A stretch of DNA of 64,000 bases from a virus (taxonomy: Duplodnaviria > Caudoviricetes): positions 69,462 through 133,461 of IMG/VR virus record IMGVR_UViG_3300031992_000031; one strand, given 5' to 3'. Below, piece by piece: positions 11,030 to 61,794 of this stretch. A program made the translations under genes and the position numbers. The notes under the pieces are model-generated. The model saw only the letters and a list, made by a program, of their open reading frames with translations. It was not told the origin of the DNA and did no database searches. How positions within the stretch are numbered: position 1 is the first letter of the stretch; each line of letters starts with the position of its first letter.

Positions 11030-11860
11030 ATGGGATATATTTATAAAATTACTAATTTAGTCAATAATAAGGCTTATGTTGGACAAACAAAATAGCCTAT
11101 TGAAATAAGGTGGGAAGCGCATGTATATGCGGCTTTCAGAGAAAATGACGATAATAGATATTATCTTCATCGTGCTATAAATAAATATGGTTTAGAAAAT
11201 TTTAAATTTGAAATAATTGAAGAAGTTCCCAATACTAAATTGGATGAAAGAGAAATTTATTGGATAGCACATTTTCACACATATAGATATGACGAAGAAG
11301 GAAATCAAGGTTATAATCTAACTCGTGGCGGTAAAGGTAACTGGAAATTTGAACCAGAAGCGCTATTGAAAGCATTTTTTAATAATAATGAACATTTAGG
11401 AAATACATGTAAAGATATTGGATGTGCAGAGCCAACTTTAATCAAGGTTTTACAAGAAAATGGATTATTTGGTAAAGGTAGTATGACTTCAGTATATCAA
11501 ATATCTTTGGTAGATGGAAGTATTATTAAGAAGTTTGATTCAGCCATAGAAGTTATGAAAACTTTTAATCGTTGTAAAACTGCAATATGTGATGCAATGA
11601 ATGGTAGACAGAAAACTGCTGCTGGATATATATGGTGTAAAGTAGAAGATTATCCTAATTTTAAACTTGAAGAACATATAGATAATAAGCAAAAGAAAGT
11701 ATTATGTGTGGAAAAGAATTTACAATTTAATATGATTAAAGATGCTGGCAAATGGGTATATGAAAATGGATATACGACTAGTAGAGAAGTAAATGCAAAT
11801 ATATGTAGAGCATGTAAAAAAGGTATAAAAGCATACGGCTTCCATTGGCAGTATGTATAA
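11030..11860 (+). CDS. free-standing GIY-YIG homing endonuclease with NUMOD1-type repeats (276 aa, one TAG=Gln)
   Basis: MGYIYKITNLVNNKAYVGQTK*PIEIRW...LHRAINKYG..NF...EREIYWI...GYNLTRGG; in-frame TAG at 11093-11095 (codon 22). The ORF track shows only the 3' part. Confidence 0.88.
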
Positions 11861-11893
11861 TAATAAAAATATTTATAAAAGAGGTAATGTAAA

Positions 11894-12517
11894 ATGACCA
11901 TAAACTATTGTGGCCTTGTAGAGTAATCTACATTGAATAACCTGTCTAATTCGGGGAAAATCTCTATGAGATAACCGCCGAGCTAAACTTCGTAAGAAGA
12001 AATGTGGAACGACTAGCTGAAAAGCGTAGCCTCAAGTGAGGCGAAAAGACAGGAACCCTACATTTTGAGGGTTGTGATATAGTCTGAACTTTATGGCGAC
12101 ATAAAGCAGTTCATAAGAGAACGAATATAGATTAACGACCTATATTGAACATTTTGTAATAGTGAACGTGTATTAAACTTTTTAAAGGAAAATTATGGCA
12201 AGGAATTTAGTAAGCAGGAAATCGCGGATGCCCTGGGCATTTCTCTATCTGCTGTAATTGGGAGCATCAATCCTCTAGAAAAGAAAGGTTATTCTCATGT
12301 AACCCGTGAAGAAGTAATTGAACTGGAGCCCGCTACGGAAACTCGTAAGGCAAAGACTAAGACCGTTAAGTATCATACTCTAACTGAAGAGGGTCTAGCT
12401 TATGATCCTATTGCTGAGGAAGCCGAAAAGATCGCCGCGAAGCAGGCAGAAAAAGAGCGTAAGGCCGCAGAAAAGGCAGCTGCGAAAGCCGCTAAGGAAG
12501 CAGAAGCAACATTTTAA
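11894..12517 (+). CDS. intron-split winged-helix protein with Ala/Lys-rich tail; join(11894..11901,12157..12517), 122 aa
   Basis: GAGGT RBS; ATG ACC AT | intron | T AAT AGT gives MTINSERVLNFLKENYGKEFSKQEIADALGISLSAVIGSINPLEKKGY...KAAEKAAAKAAKEAEATF. Exon 2 lacks its own ATG and is missing from the ORF track. Confidence 0.85.
11902..12156 (+). mobile_element. group I self-splicing intron (255 nt, no internal ORF)
   Basis: Core elements AATTCGGGGAA (P), AACCGCCGAGC (Q), GGAACGACTA (R), GATATAGTCT (S); 5' splice U.G pair in P1 (CCAU/GUGG); P10 ACUAUUG/UAAUAGU; terminal omega-G at 12156. Confidence 0.9.
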
Positions 12518-12557
12518 TTTATAACAAATCGAAGCAAAATAAAAGGAGAAAAGTAAA

Positions 12558-13460
12558 ATGAAAAGTATTCAGATTCAGTCAACTAACAAACTTAATTTGG
12601 CAGGTAAACTGTTGGATGTAACTACTGGTAGTGGAAGTCTGTCTGATGGACGTCCATATCAGCGTGCGACCGTAACGGTTCGCGTGACTCAGACTTATGG
12701 CGGAAAGGAAGAAACCAGTGATGTTCAGGTTGGCATGTTCGCGACCGAATTCACTTCTACTGGTAAGCCGAATCCCGCATGGAAGAGTCTAAATGACCTG
12801 AAACTCATGAAGACTGCGCAGAATGTAGGCATTGATAATGCTTCTCATGTGCGTCTTACAGGAGCAACTTTGCAGGAGAATAATTTTGTATCTAGGAGCG
12901 GTCAGCTAATTAATGGTTGGCAGATTCGTGGCAGCTTTATTAATGAAGCTAAGGTTGCGGATGTAGCTTCTTTTGTAACCGATATCTTTATAATGGATAT
13001 GCATGATGAAGTTGATCGTGAAGGCGACACAACTGGTCGTTTGATTATTAAGGGCGGTATTGTACAGTATGGTGGAAAGCTCGACGTTGTAGAGTTCATT
13101 GTTGAGGCTCCCGATACTGTTGAATATATTTCTCGTAACTGGGAAGTTAATGGTACAGTTACTGTTAAAGGACGTATTCGTGTTCTTTCTCAGGAAGAAG
13201 AAGTTCAGTCCAGTGGATGGGGCGAAGATGTACCTGAAACTACAACTCGCTTCGTGCGCGAACTGATTATCACTACTGGTGATGATGAATGTAAGGAAGA
13301 AGATTTCGCGTATGACCCAGTTGAGATTAAGAAAGCGTTTAATGACCGTAAGGCGGCTATTGAACAGCTTCAGATTAACGCACGGAACACAGCCCCGAAG
13401 CAGGGTGCTGGAAGTGCTAACTCTGCGGAAGCTTCCTCTAAGAAGTATGATTGGGAGTAA
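12558..13460 (+). CDS. single-stranded DNA-binding protein (tandem OB-fold, SPbeta YorF-like)
   Basis: Beta-rich repeats (NKLNLAGKL, TVTVKGRI), low-complexity tail ending YDWE, located just before the AAA ATPase. Confidence 0.65.
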   Translation: MKSIQIQSTNKLNLAGKLLDVTTGSGSLSDGRPYQRATVTVRVTQTYGGKEETSDVQVGMFATEFTSTGKPNPAWKSLNDLKLMKTAQNVGIDNASHVRLTGATLQENNFVSRSGQLINGWQIRGSFINEAKVADVASFVTDIFIMDMHDEVDREGDTTGRLIIKGGIVQYGGKLDVVEFIVEAPDTVEYISRNWEVNGTVTVKGRIRVLSQEEEVQSSGWGEDVPETTTRFVRELIITTGDDECKEEDFAYDPVEIKKAFNDRKAAIEQLQINARNTAPKQGAGSANSAEASSKKYDWE

Positions 13461-13571
13461 TTGTAAGTCAATCCAGTGGTAGGAGTGATTAAAAGCACAC
13501 CTGGCAATTGAAAACTTACAATGTGATAGAGGAAAAGGGCATAAGAATTGGCTTATGCCCTACCTCGGACA
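13461..13571 (+). promoter_or_regulatory. two-hairpin structured intergenic RNA
   Basis: TTGTAAGT/ACTTACAA enclosing CAAT/ATTG and CCAG/CTGG; second stem GAGG..AGGGCATAAG/CTTATGCCCT..CCTC; no U-tail. Confidence 0.5.
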
Positions 13572-13595
13572 TTCATATGAAAGGAGGAAAATAAA

Positions 13596-14594: not shown

Positions 14595-14597
14595 TAT

Positions 14598-14700: not shown

Positions 14701-14701
14701 T

Positions 14702-14722: not shown

Positions 14723-14724
14723 AT

Positions 14725-15270: not shown

Positions 15271-15282
15271 AGGAGGAATTAT

Positions 15283-16878
15283 ATGACGCTATCCGATTCT
15301 TATGCTTATATGCAGGTTATCGGTTGCTTAATGTATAAACCTCTATTATTTTTGGAATATCCAGACATACAACCACAGGATTTTGATCTAAGACCTGCGA
15401 GGGTATGTCTTCTTGCTATTAAAAAATTATATGAGGCGGGCGCTACTGTATTGACCCCACTTGAAGTGGATCAAGAAATCGAAAGAAGTGGTGCCGCAGC
15501 GGCACAAGTATATAAGGCCGAAGGCGGCCTAGACTTTTTAAAAAATTCTTATGAATACGCCCAATTAGGCAACTTTGAATTACATTATAAAAGAGTAAAA
15601 AAGTATTCATTATTAAGAAGATTACAGAAAGCACATTATGATATTAGTAAATATTATATAGCAGATAAAGATGTCAAGGACCCTCAATTAGAGGTTGAAA
15701 TTATTGAGAGATTAGAAAAAGCATCATTAGAAGATATATTAAATAATGTAGAAAAAGAATATAGTGAAATTAGAAATGATTTTTTGAATGGCGGCAGAAC
15801 CAAGGGCGACCCAGCAGAAGGACTTACAACTCTAATTGAAGATTTACGTAAGTCTCCAAGTATTGGGCCAAGTCTTGAAGGAAAAATATTTAGTTCGGTA
15901 TGTAGAGGCGCGCGAGAAGGGTGCTTTTTCCTTAAAAGTGCTAGTACAAGTGCTGGTAAATCTCGTACAAGTATATTTGATGCTTGTCATATTGCATATC
16001 CAAAAAGATGGTCCCATGAAAAGAATACATTTATAGAAGAAATACAGGCAGATGGAACGCCGCGAGAGCCAAGAAAAGTATTATTCATCGTAACTGAAAT
16101 GGATAAAGAAGAACTTCAAACAATTATGTTGGCATATCTATCAGGAGTAGATGAAGATAATATTTTGACTGGAAATTATGACTTAGGAGAATTAACCAGA
16201 GTGCGCCAAGCCGCAAAGATAATTGAAGAATACAGTGGTTATTTTATAGTTGAAGAAATAAGCGATCCTAATCTTCAAAATGTCGAAGCTACGATTCGTA
16301 AGTATGCGACAGTAGATGAAGTTAAATATGTATTTTTTGATTATATTCATTCAACTGCGAGTATGATTAATCAATTTTCAAAAAATAATATCAGAGAAGA
16401 TGTTATTTTGATGATGATGGCAAACCAGCTGAAACAATTAGCAAAAGATTATGGTTTGTTTATCTTCTCAGCAACACAGGTTAATGCACTTGCAATGGGC
16501 GATGAGGAAATGAATTTTAAAGATGAAAAGAGTATCCGTGGTGCGAAAGCTATCGCTGATAAAGCAGATATGGGATATGTAATGACAAGAGTCCCAGAGA
16601 AGGGTTGGCAATCAATCGTTCCGACTTTAAAACAAGCTGCGAGAGAGGGCACAATAACAGCGGATATAATAGATAATCCTCCAACTCATGTATTGGATAT
16701 ATATAAAATGCGGCGTGGCCGCTATAAAATGATTAGAATATGGTGTAGAATCCATTTGGGCACAGGAGAAAGAAAAGATTTATTTATAACAAATGCGGTA
16801 AATCAACCGATTAGTGAGCCGATAGATATATTTTCAAGTGCGAGTGAGCGAATAATTACAATTTAGGAAGAAGGATGA
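15283..16878 (+). CDS. dnaB: replicative DNA helicase (DnaB family); ends at TAG 16866 in code 11 or TGA 16878 in code 15
   Basis: ASTSAGKSR Walker A, FIVTEM, YVFFDYIH, LKQLAKDYG..IFSATQVN, IRGAKAIADKAD. Confidence 0.88.
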
Positions 16879-23500: not shown

Positions 23501-24528
23501 CCATTATTAAAGAGATTATGGAAATGCGCCCATTTGACTCATTGGAAGACTTCCTCGAAAGAGTTAAAGTAAATAAGATTCAAATGACTAATTTGATTAA
23601 GTGCGGGGCATTTGATGACATGATGAAGATTCCGCGTGAAAAAATCATGGAAAAGTATATTGATTTAGTTGCGGATAAAAAGCAGAGATTAACACTACAA
23701 AACATGCAGATGTTAATCAATTATAATTTAATCCCGGAAGAAATGAATTTTGGTAAGAAAGTATTTTTATTTAATAAGTTTTTGAAGCAACAAAAGAAAG
23801 TTGAGTATTATCAACTGAATGATGCCGCAATTAATTTTATAGCAGATAATTTTAGTGTAGATATTTTAAGAAATGGAACTGAATTATCAGCGGCGAAATG
23901 GGAACTTATTTATCAGAAAGCAATGGACCCAATGAGAATGTATTTAAAGGCACATAAAGATGAGATGCTTAAAGCATTAAATAATGCGTTATATAAAGAA
24001 GTGTATGATAAGTATGCTCTTGGTTCAATATCCCATTGGGAAATGGAAGCAGTTAGTTTTTATAGTCATTCTCATGAACTTGCAGAATCTCAATATTTAT
24101 ATGATGATTTCTTCAGTTTACCGGAAGAGCCTGAAATTGATTACAGTTTTGTTGGTAAAGACGGTAATGAAGTTAGAATATATAAATTGAGAAAAATTAT
24201 TGGAACCGTTATTGATAAAAGTAAAATGAAAAATACAGTTACATTATTAACTCCGACAGGAGTTGTAAATGTAAAAATTTATAAGAATCAATATGCGGGA
24301 TTCGATAAGCAACTATCACAAAAGGGCGCAGACGGCAAAAAGCATGTTATCGAGAAGAGTTGGTTCTCACGCGGTAGTTTGTTAATGGTTCAAGGCATTC
24401 GTAGAGGTTCTGATTTTATACCGAAGAAGCGCAAAGATAGTTTTTATCCAGTTATTTCAAAAATAATTAATGTACATGATGATGGGACATTAGAGTTTCA
24501 GACAGAGCGGGCGGTGATAGAAGAGTGA
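20572..24528 (+). CDS. dnaE: DNA polymerase III alpha subunit (family C)
   Basis: PHP domain HNHTEYS/AITDHE/TTDSHY, RGSG, DIDVD, HAGG, KMDLL, YGFNAAH; internal acidic insertion. Confidence 0.93.
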   Translation: MSQYPGSVHNHTEYSNETLRDCINTVQGLIDLAIELGHECVAITDHETISSYIKAEKYYKKIKEKHPDFKLIRGNEIYLTRNGLTAKNYDKTKDKYFHFILLAKDIEGYKQICELSTRAWQRSYMSRRQRRRPTYYQDLKDIVKPNQGHLIASSACLGSQLDKFLLQYMDTGDEQYFDTARRWCEYIEDIFGSGNFYLELQPSDNKEQIFVNKQLLRLSEMLGINYIITTDSHYGRPEDAPIHEAFLNSQDGDREVKSFYATTYMMKDEEIRSFLPYLTSEQIEAAYTAIREIKNKCEDFSILKPLKIPSLPWREFDVSNDEIEDAIEKIPELEKFLASEYRADNKLVEAVVEGIRKHPDLQNEKAYEALNECLEMTWVSSEVNKAQWSAYFLNLQKIIDECWNAGTLVMPARGSGMGFVLLYALDIIQINCLREKTKTYPWRFLNPARVSVLDIDVDIEGVRRAQVLEHLRKVYGENRVSNVATFKTEKSKSAIQTACRGLGIDNDEASYISNLIQAERGQVFTLKQTYYGDEENGLAPNQAFINEVSKHPGLWEVAQRIEGLICGQGIHAGGVVFTDEDFTESSALMRAPDGTVITQFELHDLEDVSMIKMDLLSVEAADKIHTCLDLLVEQGYIKQYPTLRETYENALGVYKINRDDKKMWDMVQNHEIVSLFQMEQQSGVRGIALTHPRSVDELAVLNSVIRLMATEKGAESPLDKYARFRENPKAWDREMQQMGLTEEQRAIMHRELDISDGMSITQEQFMQLVQLPECGGWDLQWADKLRKSIAKKNPKDYDALTKQFFDNVKEKGLNEKFCHYVWDVEVALSRGYGFNAAHTYSYSMIALQEMNLARFYPIIFWNTANLIVDSGGIQTEEVEDEDEGLDVEPEAEEEDDEDEEEWEEENEVTEGEKEDKKKEKTKSVDYGKVASAIGRFDSYGIKVSPPNINSSSYSFTPVVERNEILYGLRGITRLSTSIIKEIMEMRPFDSLEDFLERVKVNKIQMTNLIKCGAFDDMMKIPREKIMEKYIDLVADKKQRLTLQNMQMLINYNLIPEEMNFGKKVFLFNKFLKQQKKVEYYQLNDAAINFIADNFSVDILRNGTELSAAKWELIYQKAMDPMRMYLKAHKDEMLKALNNALYKEVYDKYALGSISHWEMEAVSFYSHSHELAESQYLYDDFFSLPEEPEIDYSFVGKDGNEVRIYKLRKIIGTVIDKSKMKNTVTLLTPTGVVNVKIYKNQYAGFDKQLSQKGADGKKHVIEKSWFSRGSLLMVQGIRRGSDFIPKKRKDSFYPVISKIINVHDDGTLEFQTERAVIEE

Positions 24529-32746: not shown

Positions 32747-32783
32747 AAATAAGAGCCCGGGCTTTTGCCCGGGCTTATTTTTT
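32746..32783. terminator. bidirectional intrinsic terminator between the convergent arms
   Basis: A-run, AGCCCGGGC-TTTT-GCCCGGGCT, T-run. Confidence 0.85.
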
Positions 32784-46200: not shown

Positions 46201-49200
46201 TTACTATTTTCTACTATTTTATTATATTCATCAACAAATTTCTACATATCTGAAATACTATTAGTTCCCTAATATGTATAACCACCCGCAGTAGAAATCG
46301 AAGATAAAATATTATTTTGAGCGTCTGCAATTGTTTCTTTAATATGATTGGCTAATGCTTCATCTATACCAGATAAAGCCTCTACTAATCCAGAAACATC
46401 TAATTGACCTGCATCGGTTATAAACTCACTATATTCATCGCCAAGCACACTTAAACTATCTTTTAGACTATCTCTAAATATCTTAAGATCAGCATCGGTT
46501 GCTGTGCCACTTAGAACCTTATCCCAATTTAAACCACTAATATTATCAAATACTGCCTGCTGTGCTTGGGCCATAGCTTTATTATAAGCATTAGAATCTA
46601 TTTGACCATTAACGCTCATTGCCTTAGCAAGCTCGAGAGCATAATCACTAAGTGTCATCACATAATGGTCTCCAACCTCTTTTAATTTACCTTCTTCTCC
46701 GATATCACCAATCTTTAAGCCACCCTTATCAATTAGTGTAGAAACCTAATCAGCAGTAATTGTAAATAAGTTAGAGCCAATTCCAGCCCAAGCATCTTTA
46801 GACTAAGTAAGAACTGTTTGCATAGCTTTCCAATTCTTAGCTAAATCTTCAGAAGTCCAACCTGTTTTTTGATATAAGTAATATGGATTTTTAGCAGAAA
46901 GTTCAGCAAAATATTTCTAAGCGTTTTGAGCATACTATAAAGCATTTGTAACTCTAAGAATACCATTATCAATAATAGCAGCACCATTAGCTTTTAGCTC
47001 ACGCTAAACGTCTTGTGATAACTAAGACACATTCATTTCTTTAAATAAAGAAACTGAATTAAAAGCATTATCATAGGATTTTTTAATTAAATCTTGGAAC
47101 TGAGTGTCAAGGGTAATTATACCATCAACATAGGATGAATAAGCATTTTGATAGTCAAAAGTCTATTTAAAATCACTAAACTATTGATCATCCATGCCCA
47201 TAGCTTCTTGTAACTTAGAAGCAAATCTCTGCCAATTAATAATTTTAGTTTTTCCAAACTAATTTGTTTCTAGTACATTTTCAAAACCATTTGTCCATGT
47301 TAAATTATCAGTTAAATAATCTGATAATTTTAAATTAAATTTAGTAAATGTATCTTTTAAAGTATCAATATCTAATGATGCACCCGATGCAATAACGGTA
47401 ATTGCCTAGTTAGCCTATTCATAATTTTTAGTTAAAATAGAACTATAAGCTTCATTAGCCTCTGCAGTTGAGTTAAAATGTTCTTGTACATTTCTATATA
47501 ATGTAATCGCACTTTGTACTAGATTATCGCTCGCCGCGAGCAAGCCTTGATTATCTAATTCACTCAACCCAGCATCTTCCAATAGTCCTCTTGTGGTATC
47601 AGATAACTTACTACCCGTCCCACTAAAAATTTCATTAATCGCTGTAGTTGCCGACTATGCAAGATTAATTTTCTTTTCAGACTAATAAGCTGTCATTGCC
47701 GCTTTAAAGCCTGCCTCATCGAACTATGTTATTTTTTGGCCTTCTTCATTAAAGCCTGTTTTAGTATATATTGTCCTTAAATATTCCTCATAAACAAGTT
47801 CATCTAAATTAGCTGAATTGTTCATTTTTTCATCTGAAATATTTAATGCTTTTCCTAAGGCACGTAAATTTCGTGTATTTTTTCCAGTTAAATCAGCTCC
47901 AGGAGTATATAAAGCAGACCAATCAATATTCTAAAACAAAGCATTTTGATAATCTTTTTCTTGCGCATCATACATAGCCTAAATTTGTTCAGCAAGCTAT
48001 TCATCACTTTGCTATTTCTCTTCAAGCCATGTAAAAAAGTTATCTAAAGTTTTTTCTTGTGTTTCATCAGTATAAAATTCTTCTATTAAGTCTTGTAAAA
48101 TTTGTCGACTAGCTGTATCCTCTTCATTTAATGACATTAATTCATTTATATGCTTTTCAAAATCAGCTTTATCATCTTTAAAGTCTTTTGTTGGATCAAA
48201 AGTGATAATTTCTTCTGTCTAGGTATATTGATTTATACCGCTTTCTAATTGTGTAAGAAATTCATAATCCTCTACATCCTTCCACTCTAATACTTTATCA
48301 TTTAAAACGTTTAATAAATTCTCAGAATTTGAAAAAGTATTTGCCAGTTCATCATCTGTCATAGACATAACATTATTAAAGAAAAGATCCCATTCATCCT
48401 CGGTAAAATTTACATTAAATAATTCACTTATTAAAGCCTACTATGCTGAACGTACTGTATCTCTAGTTAAACCTCTATCAAAGTCAGAACTTGGTATAGT
48501 ACTAGCAACACTACTTATAAGATCTAAAGATCTCGCATTATATTTTCGATAAGCTGCCGCAGCAGCGCCACCGACCGTATCAGGATTCGTTCCATTTAAG
48601 AAATGCTTATCATAATCCTCAGAATCTGTATAATAAGTACTGCTATTTCCTGGATTAAAAAGTGCTTTATCTTCATCGGTTAAAGTGTAAAACTCATCTG
48701 ATGATTCTCCTACTCTTTCTAAAAAGCTTCCTAATTCAATTATTCGTTCTGGAGTAACTTTTTCTTGATTCATGTACTCGGTTACCATAGATAATGTATC
48801 ATTATCTTTATTTGCGTCAAATTCTGGTAGCTTTAAAACTTGACGGGATATTTTTTGCTATCCCGTAGGAAGATTACCCTTTTTTCCACTTAAATTATCT
48901 ATTAATTCTTTCCTCTATTTAATTTTTGCTTCTGTATCTTCCTTAGTTTTAATAAAATTATTTCTCCTAGCTTCTATACTCTTTTCTAAACCTTCTTCTG
49001 TCATTACATATTTTTTTAAGATCGGATCAAATACAAATAAGTCATTAAAATTTAAATCAGAACCGTCAGATAATAATTTTACTACTTCTTCAAATTCTTC
49101 TACCGCTTTTTCAAATTCAATACCAGATTTATTAATTGATAATGAAGAATTTAACTTTTTAGAAAGATCTTTAACTTGTTTAATACTATCCTCATAAATA

Positions 49201-52200
49201 GTATTTAAATTATAATTAATACTATTTATTATACTTTGTCTTACTGTTTCAAGTCCTTCCTTATTCTAAAATTCATCATGAGTATTTGCATAACTAGACA
49301 TATCATCAAAGACTTTATTAATTTCTTCTGGATTAGAAAAATTTATATTAATAATCATATTAAATAATTCATTTTGTATATCATCAGTCTATTGCCCTAC
49401 TATATACATAATCTAATCCAATGCGTTTAATCTAGCCTAAGCAAGAGCTGTATATCCATCTTCAGCAAATCTATTTATCTATGCAAACTAATCAGTAACA
49501 AAATCGGAATATATAGATAATACATGAGTATCAGAGTCGTCCATAAAACGTTCTTTAATCCACATTATCTAATCTTCTGTGGTATATTCTTGTTTACTAT
49601 CATTCCATGTACCTTTATTTTTATTCTGAAGAATTTTCTTTAAACCTAATAGATTAGAATTAACTTTTCCAGTAGTCTAATTAAACACAGTAGAAAGAAA
49701 TCTATCTAAATTATCTTTTCTTGCATCTATTAATAACTGATTAAAACTTTTATATAAAGCATTATCTTCATTTAATTGTAAATCGAAATATTCTAATAAT
49801 TCATTTATATTACTAAATTCGCCATAATTAACAGAAGTAAGCTTTTCTCTCTAAGTTTCTGTTAGGCCCTTAATTGCAGATAAGAAATCTCTCTTTGAAC
49901 CACCTTTTTTATAAAATGTTTCATACAATTTAAGATATGACTCATTTGATTCTAATTCATTTTTATAATCATACGATAAAGAAAAATCATCATTAATAAT
50001 ATCATAAAGTTCCTATCTTCTTTCAGCCGTAGATCGTTCCTATTTTGCTGTAGTATAATTCCGTCTCGCTGATCTCTAAAAACTCTCAACCAGCTTTGCG
50101 GCTTTATTAACACCAGAGGAAGTCAAATCATCATAGTCAAGTACGCCTGCCAACTGTTTAAATTCAGTTGCCCCACCAAAAATATCAGAATATTTTGAAA
50201 AATAATCTTCATCTAATTCTTTTGCAATACCTTTTACATTAAAGCCCTATTGCATAAGAGCAATTTTACGTTGTACCTCATCAATTACTTGTAACTCATA
50301 ATCTCTGGTCACTACTTGAACATTAGCCTAATCCGCGGCAGTCTGAGCACTAACAGAACGCTCATCCACTAATTTTTTCTCTGCTGCAATTAAATTAATA
50401 ATAGCATTTCCAGCTGCATCATAACTCGAGATTAATTCAGGATACTATGCTGCCATAGAGCTCATTGCACTAGTATATGCATCCATATCTTCTTGTGAGT
50501 TATACATTGATTTACGTAATTCTTTAATATTATCAATAGAAGAAGATAGCTCTGTTACTCTTGCTTGCTATTTCTAATTTCTTTCTTTAGCGGCATCTAG
50601 CATTTTTCTAGCGTCAGCTAATTTTTCACTAAGAGTATACTTTAAACCATCAAGTATACTTCCAAGTCCCCCGACAAGAAATCCTGCTATACCGCCAATC
50701 GCAGCGCCCCACGGGCCAAACATTGCCCCCATTGATACTCCGGTAGCTGCGCCAGAAAGGCCCTAGCCTGCACCAGCTATCAATTTATCATTTTCAGTAT
50801 TTCTATTTTTTATATCTTCTACATCTTTAACACCATAATTTGCAGAAGCTCCAATTATCACTGGGGCAATTAATCTTGCAATATTTGAAGCAAGCATTAC
50901 TCCTTGACGTTTATTACTGCCCTATTTCCATTTAAAATGCTTGCCATACTTCGCACCCATATTATGTCGCCAATTAGTAAATCGTGCACGCATGGTAGGA
51001 TTGGCCGCGTCAACTTCCTCTTCTCCGGATTCAGTTGGCTCTACATTACCTTCCGGCGGGACAGCACCGCCTGGCGGAACAACACCACCTGAAGTAGCAT
51101 GAGTGCGCATTGCATTTGTATCTTGGCCGACTACAGTGGTATGCTACTACATTGTAGTCGCTCCTTGTTGAGTCGTGTCTTTTAAGCGTTCTATTGGCTA
51201 AGAAGCACCCTAAGCTACCTTACGAAGTTCTTCTAGCTCTGGCGTTGCAGCGCCCGTAGCATTAGCTGCTTCACCTATTTTTGCAACGAATTGATCAATA
51301 GCTGCATAATTAGCATCATTTTGACTCAAGCCAAGATTATTTAAAACTCCTTGACGATAGTTAGCATCATTTAAGAATGGTGCCTCACTTACTAATGTAG
51401 AAGCAATTGTTCCTTTATCGGCCATCCATCCTTCACTATTAAGCATGTCCTAAACAGTAGTAATTTTAACTGCAACTGGAGTACTCTCTACATTACTCTT
51501 GAGCTAATTTATTTCTTCTCTAGCCTAATTAGTATCTGCCTAAACAGGCTGTGTTACAGGAAGTAAATCATTTATAGTAACCTAGCCAACTACCTACTCT
51601 ACTTTCTATTGTACAACTTCGGGTGATTCTGGCTCAAGCTGAAGAGGAACCACCTAAAGATTATTTGGTCCTAAATTATTAAGATCAAACTATAATTGGC
51701 CACTAGTTCCTACTTCAGGTATAGGCGTAGGCTAATTATTTACCACTGGCGTGTTACCTAAAGGAGACTCATTATTTACAACTGGAGGAGTATTAATATT
51801 TTCTAAAGGAGGATTATTTGTTTTCTAATCCGTTGATAAAGGAATTTTAATTTCTTTTTCTTCCGCGTCCTTCCTTTCTTTATCTATTGCCTCTTTCACT
51901 CCAGTGGTATCAGCAGTAACTTTTACTTTCCAGTCTTCAGCAAGTCTACTTTTAGATTCTTCAAGTTGTCGAGTGCCGTAAGATTCCGCAGTTTTACCAA
52001 AAACCGACTATGCATCTAAAAATTCCTATCTTTTTAATTGGCGTTCTTCCTATGCTTTCTAAATTGCATTCTAGAATGTTGCATTTGCTTCGGTGAAAGT
52101 CTCCCTAGATGTAGCTGTTTTTAATTCTGACCAAGAAGCCAACTAAACTCTAGGTGTACTAGATGGTGAAACATTACCCGCAAATCCCTCTCTATCTGTA

Positions 52201-55200
52201 GGTGAAATTAATGTAGGATTATTTGCAACTCCCATTATAATGCCCATATTATTTGGTATTCCTGGACTAACTGGAGCGGTAACTCTAGCCATTGCTTCAC
52301 GACCCAATCGTGCCTATTCTTCTTTGTAACGATTTTCTTCTGCTGCTTTTCTTTCCGCTTCTTCTCTAGCCCTTCTTGCGGCTGCCTCTTCTTGAGCCTT
52401 TCTTTCTGCTTCTTTCGCCCTTCTTTCTGCTTCTTCTTTAACTTTTCTTTGTTCTTCTTCTATTCTTGCTCTGCGGTCAGCTTCCTCTTGCGCTTTTCGT
52501 GCGGCTTCTTCTTCTTGTGCCTTTTTTGCAGCTTCTTCCTATTCTGCTTTCTATGTCGCTACAGTAGAAACTACAGTTCCCTTGCCATATTGTTTTTCAA
52601 GTGCTGACTATACTTCATTGTCTCTTATAACATCTCGTAATGCTCTATTACTAGTACGTCCTCCATAGCCAAGCATATTATAAAGTTGACTTAAACCAAC
52701 ATCTCTAATAGCTGATGGTAAAATAGGAGCATTTTCTGGTGTCATATTGCTATATTGATTATTTAAATTATTATATCTCTATAACAATTCTTCGGCTCTC
52801 TAAGAATTAGAACCAGCGGCTTCCCAATCACTTCGTGCCGATTTAACTTCTTTTCCTAATCTTTCTCTACCAGTTCTATAAGAAGTTTCCTAAATAGCAT
52901 TAAAAGTTTCTTCACCAAAAATACTTCTTAATTCATCTTTACTATGGGTCGCCATAGTTTTAGCAAATCCATTTAAAGCAGTTTCTAATTTAACCTATAA
53001 ACCGCTTAAATCAATTTCACCATTATTAATTGATTGAGCTAAACTCTATAATACCGTTTTACCAATTTCTGCTGAAGATGCCCCCGCCTCTTTCGCGGCC
53101 TTCATCATTGCCTAAACTGCTGCGCCGCCAACTCCAGTTTCTAACATAGCCATAATTAATGGAGAAGGAGAATGAATATCTAATGAGCTTCGTATACCTT
53201 CAAGAATAGACTATCCTAATGTTTGAGCTGCACTACCCGTAATACCAGCAGAATTTAGCATACCAGTTATTAAGCTTAATGCAACATTAGATCCAATTAC
53301 TTCTATCTATCCTTTAATTCCTTCCATACCAGATAAAGAATTTAATATCTACCCCTTAATTTCTTCCATTGTTCCTTCAAAATTAACAGTTGGAGTAATA
53401 GAAGTTAATGTCTAACTAAAGGCCATCGCTGCAGTTTCTTGAACTCCATTTAACCCAGTTCTAAAAATATCAGCAATTTCAGTAATTTTTGCTGTAATTG
53501 CTGGATTCTATGATAATGACTATAACAATCCCTATATTGCACTATTACCAGCATTAGAAAAAGAAGATATTAATTTTGGAGCCAATTCATTCGAGCCATT
53601 TATAATTTCTTCAACATTTTGTCTAAAATTAGTAGCCCATTCAGGATTGGTAAAATCAATTGAATTCAAACTATTCTATAACTGGCCTAAAACTGTTGGG
53701 TCAATTGCATCTACTAAATTAAGTCTAGCTTTTAATTCTACTTCATTTAAACCAAGTTCCGCAGCCTAAGACTAAATTTGAGCTTTTAAATCTTCTATAT
53801 TTAAATTTAAATTAGAATTAGTCTATGTACCTAATTCACTAGTATCCGCTTTTACTTTAACAGGCATTTCTCGATTCTATTTAATCTTCTCATCTAATTC
53901 CTTTAAAGAATTTTCTGCATCAGTTTTATCAATTTTAAGCTTTTCAACTCTTTCCTATTGTTCTCCAACTCTTTTCTAATATGCCTCTTTTCCCATATTG
54001 ATAAGATTTTTTGCGCCTATACCCGCATTTACCACCGAGAATAGAGTTGGTAATATTCCTTTAAAAGTACCTAATTTTCCTATTAAAGTAATAAGTTTAG
54101 TTAACCATTCATATGTTCCCTTTAAAGCATCTTCAAAATGAAGATCTAAATATAATTGTGAAAATGCATTTTTTAACTAATTAGCTTTAGACTCTAAGGA
54201 ATCCATAGCTTTTGCTGTCTAGACCATACCAGCATTTTCAGCATTACTAGACGTATCTATTGCACGTTTTAATTCATCATAATTAGATACTAATGCAATA
54301 AAACGAGATTGTTGTCTATTACCAGCCATAACCGTAGCAACATATCTCTATGTATTATTATCTAATGTATTCCATTTTTTTGCTAATTCTAAAATTACAT
54401 CATCAAAATCACGAAATTGGCCAGCGCTATCTTTAAGAGAAATACCAATAGATTTTAAAGCTGTATCAACTTTATTAAATGCCACTTCTTCTCCATCAAC
54501 ATTTAATAATGTACTTGGCGATGCTTTCATTTCGCCATAACGAGAAATAATAGATTTTAAAGCAGAACCAATATTTTGCGCGCCTTCACGAGTGGTCTGC
54601 TCCATAACACTAATAAAAGCAGAAGTCGTCTATAATGACATGCCTACATTCGCCGCAGAAGAAGCGGTCTTTTCCATAGCATTTGCAATTTCTGCTGAGC
54701 TAACGGCAAATTTTGCCGCTAAAGCGCTATATGTATCAGTTACTTGCGCGGCATTTTCCATATCAATGTTAAACGCACGAATAGCAACAGTCATAGCATT
54801 AGTTGCTTCGGTATAATCCATACCAGAAACCTTAGCCATTTTTAGTGTTTCAGTTGTTAAAGCCATTACCTCATTAGTCTATAAACCTTGTTGATAGAAT
54901 AACTGAGAAACTGTATATACATCTTTTGTTGCAACACCAAACTATTGTGCTGTCTATGTATATTGTCCAATTTTACCCCAAAGTTCTTTTTGAGACATAT
55001 TTGTAACAATAGCAATATTAGTTATACTTTGATCCAATTCCTTTATATTACTAATAGCACTTTTAATAAATTGTGATACTTTTCTAACAACAGCATAAAC
55101 GCCAATATAACGATTAATAAAATTTTGTATCCCCTATAATTTATTAAGTGTCTAATTCATTCTAGCTAACTTAGCTTCTCCTTCATTAACAGCGAGACCT

Positions 55201-56441
55201 AATGCTCTTACTTCATTACCGGCCTACGCCATTGCTGCGCTAAATTGTGGAGAACTCTAAACAGACTAAAGTAAATTATTTTTCAAATTACTTAACTCTT
55301 GCTAAGGTATACGTAAGGCTTCAGCGAGTTCCTGCGCTTTAGAAGCAATTTCCTTATTCGGAAGATCAAATGCAGAGACTACTTTATTATAAGCATCAGA
55401 TTTTGTCTAAGTTTTATCTAATTCCTATTTCGCGCGTTCAACTTCTTTTAACTATTCAGCATAGTTATTTTTTGCCAATTCAATATTTGTTTTATTAGAA
55501 CCAAAAAGCATATTCGCAGCAAAATCGCTGTCTGTTCCCATTTTTTTCCAGGCACCTTTCATGCCGTTTTCTAAAGTTTTCGCCTATTCTTCCATTCTTT
55601 GAAGCATTTCTTGTGTTTGTTGAGGAGTCAATTCAAATCTTGCGCGAAGCTCTTTTAAAAAGCGATTTTCTCCTACCACACCACGGTTGAAACCAGAAAA
55701 TTCAGAAATTCCCTTATTATTAATGTCAAATTTCATATAAGAAGACATTAATTCCTATATTTCATTCTTTTTTCCTTCTTTTGGTATCTATTTAAAAGCA
55801 TCTTGTAAAAAACTTACAGCGCCCCACTAAGTCATACTTTGTTTTCCATTAGAATTCTAAGTAATCTTTTTCTAAGCTTCCTCGTACGCTATTGATTGTA
55901 CTTTTAATAAAGCATTAATACTGGTCATTTTATTATTAATAACTTTATATAATTCATCATAGCCCTTTTCTAATATTTTCGCCGCAGCAGCAGGCCCTTC
56001 TGCAATATTTAAATTAGATAAAAATGTCTAATCATTAAGAATTTTGTCCTTCTAAGTTCCTTTAAATGAAATTAAACTATTCTATAGCTAATTAATACGA
56101 GAATTTAATCCATCAATTTTAGACTATATATCATCTGGAATTTTTAAATCTTCAAAACGAAGATTTTTTGAAGCATTTTGAATACGATTAATACCAAGTT
56201 CTATTGCATCTACATCTTTCTAAATAGATTTAAAACTACTATCAGTATTTAATGAAATTTGTGACTTAGCAGAAATCTATTCTAATCTGCTCATTATTTT
56301 ATTTAACTCTTGTTCAAATTTTTTGCCGCCAAGAGAATCAGCTAAAAGATTTTTACCAGCAAATGCTTTTAACTAATTTGTAATATCCTATAAATTTTTA
56401 ATCTACAATGATACTGGAAGTTCAATGCCCTAAGTCACCAT
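40251..56441 (-). CDS. giant tail tape-measure protein (~5,396 aa, dense TAG=Gln)
   Basis: AAAGGAG RBS, ATG 56441, TAA 40251. Fourteen ORF-track fragments share the frame, and a manual read found only TAG in frame. TMP motifs YQQG, TRE..NIGSALKSIISRY, MAGNRQQSRF, DIHSPS, GELGPEL, FDKGG. Confidence 0.88.
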
Positions 56442-56502: not shown

Positions 56503-57408
56503 TTAAAAGTCCGCATCTAGTTCTGTCCCTAGACGCGTAATTTCCATAATTAAATTTTTCTAATCTCCAACAGTTTCTGGTAATCCAATGATATTAAAAG
56601 TAGAAACAGTGGGATCGGCCCTTTCTCCCAATCGTAAGTTAATATTACTTACAATCCTAACTTTCGGCATATACAATATATTTGTATAATTATTGCCCTC
56701 ATTTTCATCCTTTGAGTAGAACTTAGCCTCAAGTGTGAAAAGACCATTAAATCTTTCTTTTTGTACACTATAAATTAAGGCTCCATCTTCCTCCTCATAT
56801 TTATAGTAATAGTCGATTAAAAATTCATCACTAATTTTTACTGGCTCTGTACAATTTTTATCTTCGTATAATGAGATTCTATGTACAGGATTTTCAAAAC
56901 CATCAACTATATTAGGTTCTCTTTTGCCATAAACTTTTTTCTAAATAGCATTTCTAGCATAATTAAAAATAAAAGTTTTCTTAATGCTAGCATCAACCGG
57001 TTCATGTTTTACATCAATATATAAATACTTTATTTCCTTAGTATCCTAATCTATTTCTTTCTAAGGCTTAAAAGGGCCTTCTTTCATATTTATATAAAGT
57101 GGCTATTTTTCTTTTTCAGAAATAACGTTTGCGCCAAGTAAAATACTCATTCCAACCGAAGACATAACACCATCTGATAACTAAAACTACACTTCGCTTC
57201 TTTCATCCCAAATTACTCGTGGCATATTTGCCCAACCACCACGCGCAAATACAGGACGATTCTATTCAGTTAAAAGTGACATATTTACATTATCAAAATA
57301 TAATACAGGTTCATCTTTTTCAATATATCTATCACCAAATTGCATCGGCTATTTAGCGCGTAATACAACTTCATATAAGTCTTTATGGCCAAAATACTAT
57401 TCCATCAT
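56503..57408 (-). CDS. minor tail-tube paralog (301 aa, TAG=Gln)
   Basis: FGHKDLYEV, PVLYFDNV, ARGGWANMPRVIWD, ADPTVSTF align with the major tail protein; absent from the ORF track. Confidence 0.78.
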
Positions 57409-57428
57409 ATTACATATCACCGCCATTC

Positions 57429-57463
57429 TAAAAAAAATAAAGGGCTTCCCATTTGGGAAGCCC
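57429..57463 (-). terminator. intrinsic terminator after major tail gene
   Basis: GGGCTTCCC-aaat-GGGAAGCCC with a U-run on the - strand. Confidence 0.8.
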
Positions 57464-57478
57464 CGTTATTTAGTTCAA

Positions 57479-58429
57479 TTAGGAACCAGAGACAGAGCCA
57501 TAGTCATCTTCAGCTACGCCACTTGTGCTGCTGCTGATATTGTAACGAACTAGCTTCATCATCTCATTTTCACCCTGTTCGTTGGTAGAACGAAGCACAT
57601 TCAGGGTCATTTCAAAGGTAGAAGGATCGCCTTCAGCCTGTAGAGTAATAGTAACATTACTCTGTACCTTTGCCTTATTGATAACGAACTGGAATGGCTC
57701 ATCCTTACCGGTCTTTTCAGAACGCATGAAGGTATCGCCAATTACCTTATAAGTTCCAGGGAAGGTATCAGGAGAAATTGTAACTTCAACCGCGGTCTCA
57801 CTACCGGTGTTATTCTGTAGGACTTCTTCCCAGAAAATACGAATATGATCGCCTTTAGCAGAAGATACTGGAGAATCACCAATCATCTTAGGATTCTTGA
57901 AGGAAACAGAATGTGCACCATCAATAGCAGGAGCAGTTTGACCAGCAGCATAAACTAACTGAGTACGAGCACCTGTGGTTAGATTGATTAGACGAATTGG
58001 ATGTCCATCGGTAGCTTTTGGGGTTAAAGCAACACCAGTTAAATGATCTTTTGGCTGAGGTAGAATACCACCTTCACCGCAAACTACTTCTTCAGTATGA
58101 CGAACAATAACTGGGGCGTCAGCAGCTGGCTTTTTAATAGCGCCACCTAACATGAAACGAAGAGACTCAAGAGATAATAGAGCATCTTCTAGAGTGATGT
58201 TAATTTCCTTACCATAGTCCCATTGTACTAGCTTAGGATTGCCCCAGCCGCCCTGTGCAGCAGTGTTTTCAGCAGTAGTTTCAATGGTGGAAACTTTTAA
58301 GGTATCTAGGAATAGAACGATATCACCAGCATATACGCCAGCAGCAAGATCATCGTCTAGAGCTTCAAAGTATACGTTAGCAACCTCTTTAATACCATAC
58401 TTATCAAAAATATTAACGTTACTTGCCAT
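57479..58429 (-). CDS. major tail tube protein (no TAG)
   Basis: KYGIKEVANV, AQGGWGNPKLVQWD, TFPGTYKVIGDT, LQAEGDPSTFEMTL; strong RBS. Confidence 0.82.
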   Translation of the reverse strand: MASNVNIFDKYGIKEVANVYFEALDDDLAAGVYAGDIVLFLDTLKVSTIETTAENTAAQGGWGNPKLVQWDYGKEINITLEDALLSLESLRFMLGGAIKKPAADAPVIVRHTEEVVCGEGGILPQPKDHLTGVALTPKATDGHPIRLINLTTGARTQLVYAAGQTAPAIDGAHSVSFKNPKMIGDSPVSSAKGDHIRIFWEEVLQNNTGSETAVEVTISPDTFPGTYKVIGDTFMRSEKTGKDEPFQFVINKAKVQSNVTITLQAEGDPSTFEMTLNVLRSTNEQGENEMMKLVRYNISSSTSGVAEDDYGSVSGS

Positions 58430-58445
58430 AAGAGTTTACCTCCTT

Positions 58446-59219
58446 TTATTTATCTCCACTAGCAATGGAACGCATCCAATGCTTTAGTTGAGATTTATTG
58501 ATTTTTGCGCCCGCGAGGGCAGCTCTCTAATTTATATTAAACTAATCACGCCAGCCCATCCGCTTTAGCTAATCATGAAGAGCATAATATGTAATATCCC
58601 AAATATTCGACATATTTAGGCCGCAATCATTGATAGTTATACTACCAATTAAATCGGATAGTTTCATATCAGAACCGTCCTATTTAGATTGTCGTGCTTT
58701 TGCGCGACGAACTTTCTCACGGTTCGCGCGCATTTGCATTTTCAATCTTTTTGTAGCAGGATCATCATCATCATATATAATGATTTCTTCTCCTTCCTAT
58801 TCCATAAAGTACATTCTTTTAAGAATACGCTACAAATCATAAAAATGTGCCTCATCTAATACATGCTATTCTTCTAATGGTCCAAGCATAATTTGAGGAG
58901 GATCTAATAGAAAAGATGCTTGTGAATGAGTGAAAAATTGAAATGCCTATTTTACTAAAAAATTGACCGTAGAATCCATTGATACCATCAGTAGCAAGTA
59001 CTAAAAATCACTAATGCTATTCAACATTTCACGTAATTCATTATCACCTTTTACATCCGTAGGTTTAGTAGAAGTTAAAATGCTTAAATACTACTAAAAT
59101 TTATCATATCCTATATCAATTATTTCACCTAATTTTGCAGGATATACTGCGCAAATATCTTCTAATAATACTGGACTTCCACGAAGAAACTTTAAAGTTT
59201 CATTATCAGTTAAATTCAT
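58446..59219 (-). CDS. tail assembly chaperone-like protein (257 aa, TAG=Gln)
   Basis: MNLTDNETLKFLRGSP...YPAKLGEIIDIGYDKF**YL...NIWDITYYALHD*L...AALAGA...KHWM; tandem TAG TAG at 59091-59096. Confidence 0.65.
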
Positions 59220-59712
59220 TGATTGAATATGTCATTGTATAGCCGCCAATTTGAGAAGTAAATACTGTTCTATCTGCTCGTACAAACTTTAAAGTACCAA
59301 TACCAGCCATTTGTGCGCCATTAAACATCTTATCAATTTCTTCCATAAGAAGATAAGGACGCAAAGAGTTTTCATCTAAAACCCATTCATCATATGGACA
59401 AGCTACATCTATACCGATTGTACTTATTTTAAAATCTTTATTAAGCATATTAGTAACAAAAGTATTAAATAAAGCAACTATATAAGACGTTTTCTCCGTA
59501 CTTTCATCCCAAATTTTGGGAGTAATCATAATCTATTTGTTTAGAAGTAAGATACCATCCACATCATCATACTTCTATTCATTAAATGGATCGCGTACCT
59601 AATATTTTAGAAGGCGACATATGCGCTAATTTGACATTAGTTTATTGGCCATGTTAAATGCATTTTTACCCATGACCGAAAACCGGCGCTATGTTGGATC
59701 AGAAATAGGCAT
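59206..59712 (-). CDS. tail completion/terminator-like protein (168 aa, TAG=Gln)
   Basis: GAGGTGAG RBS; NKLMSN*RICRLLKY...RPYLLMEEIDKMFNG...GIGTLKF. Confidence 0.7.
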
Positions 59713-59722
59713 TTAACTCACC

Positions 59723-61051
59723 TCACCACAATGGAATAATTTTAACTGTTTTTTCATACGTAGCAATAATAATATATTCATTATCAACTTTTCTCTAATG
59801 CTAGGCAGTTAAAATTAATTCACCAATTTTATTTTTTGTATTAGCATGTAATACTTGAGCATAAGGAATTAAGTTATTATCTTTATCATACGCCGGAGAT
59901 ACAGTAGCGAGAGGAACTTTTTCATCGGTTTTATTAGTGATAAAAAATTCAACTTTTTCATCGAGATCAGAATTTAGTATTAATGGCTAATTTTCATTAC
60001 TAACTACTTGATATTTCGCATAGCGATCTAACCGCAAAGTATCTGGGCCATCAATTAAAAATACAGGTTCTTCTTCTCGTCCAACAATATTAATTTCAAC
60101 TGTTTTAGTCACTGCAGGTCTATTTTTTAAACGCATAGTAATCATGCATGAACCTACTGCAGTAGAGCGTGAATGTAATTCTGAATACCATTTTTCCTTC
60201 TCATTTAGTTCTTCTGGTAATTCATCTACTAAACTAAAATCAGATGGTCTTAATTCAATTTCCCACTAATTTAAAGTATCAGCTTCAAACTAAGGAATTA
60301 TTAAATCCCCAGCCCGATATAAAGTAGACAAAGTAGGAAATTTATATTTATCAGTTGCCGCGACATCAATATCACGATCATCATACTGATAATTTACCTT
60401 ACTTTCAGTTAATGACATATAAACAATTCCTTCAACACTTGTCCAATCGCACTCAATTACAACCCATCCTTCATTTTCAATAATAAAAGTAACACCACGC
60501 ATTAATTCATCGTAATCCGCACTTTTCTCTCTAAAAATAGGACGAGGCATTATAATTTCAGCAAACTTATTGGGCTGTGGTGAAATAAGTGAATGCCACA
60601 TTCTAAAATTGCCTTTAACCTTGCTATCTACTGAACTAACAGCATAAGCCCAAGATTTACGCAAATAACCATCAGTATCAATCCACTTTAATTCATAATT
60701 ACACTTAATAATCTAAAATGTTTGATACTATTCATGTACCTTATGTATTTTCTATAATAAAAGCCATTTTTCAATAGCTCCATTATCTTGTCTCCATGTA
60801 AGTATATCGCCAACAACAATTGGAATGTCATTAGCAACATATAAATACATGATTTTTAATTCTTCCTTATCCTTACTAGTTTGGATTATGCCGCTAAAAT
60901 ATAATCCTCTCTCAACGGATAAGTCTTCAACTGTAAAAGGAGATTGCGCTTTCCACTTTTCAAAAGCCTCAATCCCACTATTTTTTATACGTTCAGCATA
61001 TGTTTCTCCAAAATGATTTACACGGGAAAAATACACATCAAGATAATTCAT
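59723..61051 (-). CDS. head-closure/neck protein (442 aa, TAG=Gln)
   Basis: Fragments 60752 and 60290 are in frame; VGDILTW...WLL...IIKCNYELKWID; ends KIIPLW TGA. Confidence 0.7.
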
Positions 61052-61373
61052 CTGGTATGTTTAATCCAGTTACTAAATTAATACATTCAAAAATATTCTT
61101 TCTGAAGTATTCATATGAAAGATAACGTAAAAGCGCCAATTTTCCTAACAAGGGCCACCAGTTAATCGAATTCGCGCCCAGCCCCATCAATTCAATAATA
61201 ATTGAATCAAGAAATTTTTCCCATTCGCCATCTTTTTCACGCTCACATAATAAGCCATATAAACGACCTTTTAATTTATTTTTATAACCATCAAAGGTTA
61301 TATCAGTCAGATTGTCTTTTCCCTGCCAATTTTCTGAATATCTCAGCAGGGGAGCCTCCACGCGATTTGTCAT
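61038..61373 (-). CDS. small neck-region protein (start uncertain)
   Basis: YKNKLKGRLYGLL..RE...FRKNIFECINLV; the real start may be near 61310. Confidence 0.55.
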   Translation of the reverse strand: MTNRVEAPLLRYSENWQGKDNLTDITFDGYKNKLKGRLYGLLCEREKDGEWEKFLDSIIIELMGLGANSINWWPLLGKLALLRYLSYEYFRKNIFECINLVTGLNIPDELS

Positions 61374-61794
61374 AATCGTCTTTTGCTCCTTCGCATTCTA
61401 TAGCGACTGATTTTTCAAGATCGTTTAACTTATCGAGGTGATTTGCAGCGGAAAAATCTTTTGAAGTATAAAGCTGACCTATATGATCCCAACTAGCAAC
61501 GCAACGTTTAATCCACTCATGTTTCATATAAGTAGCAAGCACTTGAATTTCTGCGTTAGTAAGATCATTTTTAAACTAATATATTTTAAGTTGAGGAGCC
61601 ATCTCAGATACTTCAGCGGCAGATACTTCCTCAAACTCTAAATTCACACGAGGATATTTAAATCGAGCAATGGCCATTTTGAGAAGTTCTTGCCAATCTC
61701 GTTCAACGATAGCTAACTCTTCTTCCAATGTCCACTCGTCGGCTGTAATCCGTGCGAGAAACGCGTCGTAAACTTTTAAGAAGGGTGTTGCCAT
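61303..61794 (-). CDS. head-tail adaptor/connector (163 aa, 1 TAG=Gln)
   Basis: MATPFLKVYDAFLARIT...IY*FKNDLTNAEIQVLATYMKHEW...YTSKDFSAANHL; joins ORF-track 61576 and 61303. Confidence 0.75.

Follow-up and report, generated by a model that had tools for sequence, protein, structure and literature searches.

Many genes in a 64,000-nt stretch of a tailed-phage genome are interrupted by TAG, which raises the question of what this codon means in the phage and how it is read. The stretch, hereafter the window, comprises bases 69,462–133,461 of the 133,461-nt linear virus record IMGVR_UViG_3300031992_000031, which is 75% complete; positions are given in window coordinates unless stated otherwise. 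A previous interpretation, referred to here as the sequence-only reading, had described the phage as dual-coded, with TAG reassigned to glutamine (Gln) in 13 genes and read by means of a phage suppressor encoded outside the window. In the present analysis, a single code (code 15) fits the genome, and the suppressor is a tRNA(CUA) with a second, Gln-like anticodon arm, which is probably the part recognised by the host enzyme that charges it.

The comparison of coding density proposed in the sequence-only reading gave a large gain when TAG was read and not when TGA was read: the coverage of the window by open reading frames (ORFs) was 0.559 under code 11, 0.941 with TAG read, and 0.588 with TGA read. 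For the whole contig, the coverage increased from 0.52 to 0.90 on reading TAG. Twelve of the 13 interrupted genes are secure (those at 11030, 24525, 29199, 31608, 32782, 38122, 40251, 56503, 58446, 59206, 59723 and 61303) and contain 290 internal TAG in all, while the 13th is uncertain, as it hinges on the start choice for 61038–61418 or on a TAG in the DnaB gene that lies three codons before its TGA. In the tape measure gene, 176 of the 5396 codons are TAG and none is TAA or TGA, which is far beyond chance. The six TAG motifs quoted earlier as sites where Gln would fit were all located in the sequence, the four consecutive TAGs were confirmed at 41259–41270 on the minus strand, and the region 29199–30233 contains 9 TAG and 1 CAG as claimed, along with 19 CAA.

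The residues found opposite the window TAGs in homologs were Q (679), TAG (385), K (243), T (229), and E (218). When the genome was compared with a complete standard-code sister phage, the TAG columns contained 36% Q and 11% E, resembling the CAA/CAG columns (44% Q, 12% E) and unlike the glutamate (Glu) columns (5% Q, 57% E). The homolog columns favour Gln, as the sequence-only reading had proposed, and TAG almost certainly means Gln. Serine, selenocysteine (Sec) and pyrrolysine (Pyl), which are hinted at by the long arm, the G73, the ARAGORN Pyl label and the Rfam Sec match of the suppressor tRNA described below, were ruled out as the meaning of TAG by the same columns. In one gene, TAG stands opposite tryptophan (Trp); this concerns a single TAG per locus in otherwise TAG-free sisters, where it is most likely a real stop.

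The codon usage of the two gene sets shows where the TAGs came from. CAG accounts for 1.67% of the codons in TAG-free genes and 0.48% in TAG genes (Fisher p = 7e-11), whereas CAA is steady at 2.15–2.17% in both, and the GAG/GAA control gives p = 0.94. Because CAG drops and CAA does not change, TAG mostly replaces CAG, and the earlier proposal that TAG arose from CAG largely holds. However, the sum of Gln and TAG increases from 3.8% to 5.4% in TAG genes, and conservation is lower in the TAG columns. On this basis, a part of the TAGs probably derives from codons other than those for Gln. As a separate observation, the preference for CAG over CAA is extreme in TAG-free genes of this AT-rich genome (15:0 at 12558–13460 and 13:1 at 62314–63429). 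A search of five genomes gave no intact tRNA-Gln(CUG) gene.

TAG occurs only at or after the end of homology in 1 of 109 ORFs with homologs, compared with 14 TAG among 165 stops in the standard-code sisters. Therefore, a single code 15 fits the genome, and the description as dual-coded was overstated: code 15 alone accommodates all genes, some of which simply contain no TAG. The TAG-free genes, with 0 TAG among 7171 codons, include the core replisome (gyrase, helicase, primase region, DNA polymerase and NrdD) as well as the major capsid gene, the structural gene at 57479, and the genes at 12558, 61801 and 63429. The recoded genes include RuvC, two GIY-YIG genes and 24525 within the replication block, and PhoH, YcaO and a glycosyltransferase outside the window. 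The recoding is concentrated in late and structural genes and spares the replication core, which is true in bulk with exceptions in both directions. The earlier claim that replication and early genes stay readable by the host is thus correct for the core replisome, but the division is not one of early against late, as the capsid gene is TAG-free and RuvC, the GIY-YIG genes and 24525 are recoded. A better fit would be that genes needed at entry or in bulk are kept free of TAG. The adjacent phrog_2729 paralogs at 56503–58429 differ in this respect, as one has 10 TAG and 0 CAG and the other 0 TAG and 8 CAG; this contrast suggests that the TAG load may tune the copy number.

As expected from the sequence-only reading, a phage suppressor was found outside the window. 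ARAGORN detected an 88-nt tRNA(CUA) at genome positions 23445–23532 (L002:3445–3532 in piece coordinates) on the plus strand, 46 kb from the window. It has a 7-bp acceptor stem starting with A1-U72, G2-C71 and C3-G70, followed by G73, a 5-nt D loop, a 19-nt variable region, and a 7/5 branch. Its best Rfam match is tRNA-Sec with 35.7 bits, which is below the gathering score of 47. The loop of the first arm (arm 1), which bears CUA, is located at genome positions 23474–23480. The variable region carries a second arm (arm 2), whose loop at 23489–23495, CU-CUG-AA, is that of tRNA-Gln(CUG) and is common to the first five genomes. The acceptor and T stems show compensatory changes among the relatives. 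The system does not resemble pyrrolysine-type UAG decoding in the features compared, which did not include a search for pyl genes: the tRNA is 88 nt long with a 19-nt variable region, unlike the short tRNA-Pyl with its minimal variable loop, and TAG replaces CAG and aligns with Gln.

The distribution of this tRNA was followed in 71 related loci, retrieved with the capsid protein as the query. The phage is a large tailed phage of gut/rumen type, about 180 kb when complete, and its capsid is related to those of phAss-1 (35% identity), the Enterococcus phages EF1/VRE9 (31%), and Bacillus phages such as Kirov (26%). The capsid relatives infect Firmicutes, and the host of this phage is probably a member of the same phylum. 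Among the close relatives, TAG is Gln in about 35 loci and lines up with Glu in two, while about 20 appear to follow the standard code; sisters of these three kinds coexist at 63–99% capsid identity. Of the near-complete relatives, 7 of 8 with code 15 have the two-arm tRNA, compared with 0 of 6 with the standard code. In two of the seven it is split: in G001 (L085:729–991) a group I intron (E = 1.4e-7) divides the CUA anticodon between U35 and A36, and in G018 (L532:1157–1540) an insert occupies the same site, so that the code switch would depend on splicing in these phages.

The sister phages IMGVR_UViG_3300021399_000108 (G005) and IMGVR_UViG_3300021399_000154 (G006) have 40% and 35% E opposite TAG, respectively, with Q at 4% or less, and read TAG as Glu. 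A Glu loop on the second arm was expected in such a sister, but this expectation failed. The tRNA(CUA) of G005 (G005 positions 63845–63919) is instead a single-arm molecule on a tRNA-Glu-like body, with U11-A24, U13-G22, A46 and no nucleotide 47. Phages that read TGA as Trp are present among the more distant capsid relatives, where the carriers of the TGA type share the capsid family at 26–38% identity; TGA = Trp was clear in only 2 of the 4 checked carriers of a tRNA(UCA).

To what extent the triplet of arm 2 follows the amino acid can be seen from tRNA scans in which only arm 1 and the T loop were specified and arm 2 was left free. Among the matches listed, CUA tRNAs with a long variable region had a 7-nt YUG loop in 23 of 31 cases (1.8 in shuffles) and a CCA loop in 1 of 31, whereas long UCA tRNAs had a CCA loop in 29 of 60 (1.6 in shuffles) and YUG in 5 of 60 (4.4 in shuffles). 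The association between the second loop and the stop anticodon is strong (Fisher p = 3e-10), and many of the remaining long UCA tRNAs resemble true tRNA-Sec. The sense tRNAs for Leu, Ser and Tyr gave about 7 YUG and 0 CCA in about 190. The mirror design, in which a tRNA(UCA) of TGA-type phages bears the Trp triplet CCA in its second loop, had been expected beforehand from the identity model and was found.

The bases flanking the triplet in loop 2 vary in the CUA type, while the triplet remains CUG or UUG. The distance from the end of loop 2 to the T stem is 9 nt in 42 of 53 CUA and 29 of 35 UCA cases, as it is (9–10 nt) for ordinary Gln and Trp anticodon loops, whereas the spacer between arm 1 and loop 2 varies from 3 to 12 nt. 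As MAFFT misregisters arm 2, the stem pairs were counted on loop-anchored and T-stem-anchored sets without filtering. In these sets, the pairs exceed the shuffles at positions 1–3 in the CUA type and 1–6 in the UCA type, and G-C/C-G swaps are seen. The design also occurs in phAss-1, in the crAss-like phage cr113_1, and in seven contigs from metagenome-assembled genomes, most of which are low in GC and, as in these phages, often rich in tRNAs; a two-arm UCA tRNA is present in the Agate representative GiantTortoise_AD_1_scaffold_344. Literature searches for a tRNA with two anticodons gave nothing relevant, most subscription journals being outside their reach, and the two-arm suppressor design is apparently undescribed.

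Activity data are available from a published screen of 213 phage suppressor tRNAs in E. coli extract (bioRxiv 10.1101/2025.10.30.685624), whose main text, by word search, makes no mention of a variable arm or loop. The rows of its supplement were classed by eye as two-arm or single-arm. For UCA, 13 of 13 two-arm tRNAs were active at 26.7–58.9k relative fluorescence units (RFU), compared with 2 of 12 plausible single-arm tRNAs (p = 2e-5), where the background was 5.4k and the wild type 69k. For CUA, 19 of 24 two-arm tRNAs reached at least half of the wild type, compared with 71 of 138 others (p = 0.014). CUA-147 and CUA-148, which belong to the same short-D-loop subtype as the tRNA of this genome, gave 54k and 57k against 66k for the wild type and 2k for the background. 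Among the five weak two-arm CUA tRNAs, loop 2 is degenerate in three and arm 1 is broken in one. Mass spectrometry in the same work identified Gln for 28 of 29 CUA and Trp for 13 of 13 UCA tRNAs among those tested, counts that could not be divided here between two-arm and single-arm molecules. These data indicate that two-arm tRNAs decode stops with host enzymes alone, in the absence of phage proteins, and that charging by the host goes closely with the second arm in the case of UGA, as a correlation across different backbones. The amber tRNACUA-44, which has a Trp loop on its second arm, is active at 56k RFU, and the residue that it inserts would be a natural swap case for the role of arm 2 in charging.

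The domains of RF-1, PCRF and the glutaminyl- and glutamyl-tRNA synthetases (GlnRS and GluRS; PF00472, PF03462, PF00749) were found neither in the contig nor in four near-complete relatives. Thus, the release factor 2 (RF2) and Gln-tRNA synthetase for which the sequence-only reading had proposed a search were both absent from these sequences, as was GluRS. The anticodon bases are major identity elements of tRNA-Gln and tRNA-Trp (PMC9976931). In the proposed mechanism, the TAG-free entry genes would be made by the unmodified host machinery, after which the phage would express its own tRNA(CUA) and thereby unlock the TAG-bearing genes for low-copy virion proteins, the resolvase, homing endonucleases and accessory functions. 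Very abundant proteins would avoid TAG because read-through is presumably costly. Arm 1 would decode UAG, and the Gln-charging enzyme of the host would recognise the acceptor stem and the CUG loop of arm 2, which lies at the canonical distance from the T arm. Arm 2 would supply the anticodon identity that CUA lacks, so that no phage synthetase would be needed. We regard this explanation as a whole, from the TAG = Gln code and the timed unlocking of TAG genes to arm 2 as the charging handle, as fairly likely.

The second arm might have other functions. If it were a second decoding arm, the tRNA would flip so that CUA or CUG reaches the A site, and UAG and CAG (UGA and UGG in the Trp type) would both be read. 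In silico deletion of arm 1 indeed leaves a recognisable tRNA-Gln in 39 of 53 cases and a recognisable tRNA-Trp in 31 of 35, and the failure to find an intact tRNA-Gln(CUG) gene and the CAG preference of abundant genes would agree with it. However, stem 2 has only 2–3 standard pairs in the CUA type, which is short for an anticodon stem in the A site, and the gain is unclear when the host already reads CAG and UGG, which makes this possibility quite improbable. It is also unlikely that arm 2 has a role apart from charging, as a structural or stabilising element, a recruiter of modification enzymes, or a decoy against the anticodon nucleases of the host. The triplet of arm 2 is matched to the amino acid assigned at the stop (Gln or Trp), for which a generic stabiliser would have no need, and the suppression of UGA by host enzymes tracks arm 2 strongly, although single-arm CUA tRNAs often work without it and loop 2 positions 32, 33, 37 and 38 are also kept anticodon-like. 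A further possibility is that the two-arm RNA is trimmed, in which case phage enzymes would remove one of the arms and leave a normal suppressor or a normal tRNA-Gln. While tRNA genes with nested inserts do occur in this genome, the strong suppression that two-arm tRNAs give in E. coli extract, where phage proteins are lacking, leaves very little room for such processing.

Another explanation would place the recoding in the host, which would itself read TAG as Gln; the phage would then be merely adapted, and the suppressor accessory. Such a host would account for the observation that practically no gene of this phage requires TAG as a stop, and for the 176 TAGs in one gene without a release-factor gene, since the full-length tape measure protein requires about 99% read-through per TAG (0.99^176 = 0.17; 0.95^176 = 1e-4). 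It would not account for the complete absence of TAG from the TAG-free genes, replisome included, for the coexistence of closely related sisters with three codes, or for the co-occurrence of the suppressor with the recoding, and we consider it highly improbable.

Several results weigh against arm 2 as a charging handle and against the mechanism built on it. Most phage CUA tRNAs are single-arm (63 of 94 distinct ones are short, among the matches listed) and E. coli GlnRS accepts many of them, as seen from the 71 of 138 single-arm amber tRNAs that reached half of the wild type; therefore, arm 2 is not required for code 15. No two-arm tRNA was seen in the complete code-15 relative G024, and stem 2 in this genome, with only 2 standard pairs, contributes little to the folding energy. 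The shuffle controls ignore kinship, and the screen compares single values of different backbones and related sequences, classed by eye, with no arm-2 mutants among them. No release-factor gene was found that would explain how release factor 1 (RF1), which the suppressor would have to out-compete, is overcome at 176 TAGs. Taking the evidence on both sides into account, we lean towards the view that the two-arm tRNA separates decoding from identity, such that changing the second triplet would reprogram the amino acid of the stop without a phage enzyme.

The extra arm of Ser and Sec tRNAs is a handle for their synthetase. The type II tRNAs (Ser, Leu, Tyr), tRNA-Sec, and allo-tRNAs (Mukai et al., PMC5389517) share a long extra arm with the suppressor, and tRNA-Sec is its best Rfam match. 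It differs from tRNA-Sec and the allo-tRNAs in that its acceptor branch is 7/5 rather than 8/5, 8/4 or 9/3, its score remains under the Rfam threshold, and its residue is Gln rather than Ser or Sec. Its extra arm ends in a 7-nt Gln anticodon loop, a feature that few sense type II tRNAs have. The E. coli thrS operator likewise contains a copy of an anticodon loop outside the decoding position that serves as a synthetase recognition site, and switching the triplet of such anticodon-mimic elements switches the enzyme (PMC9976931). These are regulatory mRNA elements, whereas here the mimic lies inside a translating tRNA.

Gut phages with code 15 are already known, as the sequence-only reading had stated, and the recoding described here adds one more case. 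Passages of Borges et al. (bioRxiv 10.1101/2021.08.26.457843) describe TAG-to-Gln phages among crAss-like, Lak, Agate and other groups, passages of Peters et al. (PMC9523058) report proteomic proof of Gln at TAG in crAss-like phages, and phAss-1 is a further published case (PMC10607447). According to these passages, such phages share with the present one the use of TAG as Gln in structural and homing-endonuclease genes, a TAG-free replication core, a phage suppressor tRNA, usually no synthetase or RF2, and, as in Agate, sister phages of codes 11, 15 and 4. They differ in that the capsid and probable major tail genes are TAG-free here, and the passages searched in Borges et al. and Peters et al. 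describe no second anticodon-like arm. The phage also differs from those with a code-change module of release factor and synthetase (Jade, some Lak and Agate), as neither gene was found in this contig and the four near-complete relatives. phAss-1 of the proposed Phassvirus (Babkin et al. 2023, PMC10607447; OQ749652) is likewise a large phage with code 15; its hosts are presumed to be Clostridia, its tape measure is very long, and it has a tRNA-SUP-CTA and no synthetase. It has its own two-arm tRNA at 62442–62534, annotated only as tRNA-TERM. However, its capsid is only 35% identical, the present group has larger genomes (about 165–190 kb for complete relatives), and the suppressor is of another D-arm subtype.

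How phage suppressor tRNAs are charged without a phage synthetase is stated as an open question in a passage of Borges et al. (bioRxiv 10.1101/2021.08.26.457843). If the handle model is true, an identity anticodon separate from the decoding anticodon would be a new cloverleaf design. Such a design would help to account for the changes among codes 11, 15 and 4 in sister phages and would offer a modular scaffold for genetic code engineering. The present analysis adds the presence and absence of the two-arm tRNA across sister codes, the fixed register between loop 2 and the T arm, and the tie to the published activity screen. The model is directly testable because close homologs are already active in the E. 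coli cell-free assay.

The coordinates of the genes discussed are given in Table 1.

Table 1. Recoded genes and selected TAG-free or nearly TAG-free genes of the window (window coordinates).
Feature	Coordinates	Strand	Family evidence
GIY-YIG homing endonuclease, 1 TAG (codon 22)	11030..11860	+	
DnaB-like helicase; single TAG three codons upstream of its TGA, product almost complete with both codes	15283..16878	+	
Conserved 363-aa protein, 3 TAG, no family match	24525..25616	+	
344-aa protein, C-terminal GIY-YIG domain, 9 TAG	29199..30233	+	
RuvC-like Holliday junction resolvase, 6 TAG	31608..32360	+	
1772-aa protein downstream of tape measure gene, 46 TAG, no family match; putative tail-tip protein by position	32782..38100	-	
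706-aa protein adjoining tape measure gene, 14 TAG; putative distal tail protein by position	38122..40242	-	
Tape measure protein, 5396 aa, 176 TAG	40251..56441	-	PF10145 E=1e-29
Virion structural protein phrog_2729, 10 TAG	56503..57426	-	
Paralogous phrog_2729 structural protein, probable major tail, TAG-free, CAG 8 : CAA 2	57479..58429	-	
phrog_4051 protein, 11 TAG	58446..59219	-	
Virion structural protein phrog_6123, 5 TAG	59206..59712	-	
Conserved protein in structural block, 8 TAG	59723..61051	-	
phrog_3853 protein, 1 TAG (30 Q in aligned homologs)	61303..61794	-	
Probable major capsid, TAG-free, CAG 13 : CAA 1	62314..63429	-	weak matches to annotated Bacillus phage capsids

Several further elements were noted in the record. 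A stand-alone copy of the L11-binding hairpins of 23S rRNA, with an insert of roughly 105 nt, is located at L003:4945–5098 (genome about 44,945–45,098, that is, about 44.95–45.10 kb). Such a mimic was considered as an RF1-weakening partner of the code switch, an idea that reportedly goes back to Van Dyke, Xu and Murgola in 2002. This candidate was rejected: the standard-code sisters G025, G027, G028 and G030 and two tRNA(UCA) carriers contain the mimic, whereas no copy was found in the complete code-15 genomes G002–G004, G018 and G024. At least 13 phage genomes, which differ in their code type, keep it with varying closing stems, and it is a real element that is not tied to TAG recoding.

Immediately after the suppressor gene, the region L002:3557–9446 encodes a recoded YcaO protein (PF02624), a protein of 442 aa whose gene has 18 TAG, a 4Fe-4S (Fer4_12) protein, and a second ORF without TAG, and is a putative cluster resembling those for ribosomally synthesised and post-translationally modified peptides (RiPP-like) in a phage. 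The tRNA-Asn and tRNA-Gln(UUG) genes (L002:13864–13983 and L003:5301–5458) carry anticodon-loop inserts of 46 and 86 nt, respectively, and the insert of the Gln gene is identical in G003. A transfer-messenger RNA (tmRNA) above the Rfam cut-off is located at L003:296–620, a weak YrlA-like match at L002:11587–11653, and a cow-rumen-4 RNA at L002:2994–3056; one may speculate that the tmRNA could rescue ribosomes stalled in the code switch. Finally, the sign of the GC skew flips at about 32400–32780 of the window, where two gene blocks converge, as it does in bidirectionally replicating Agate-like genomes.

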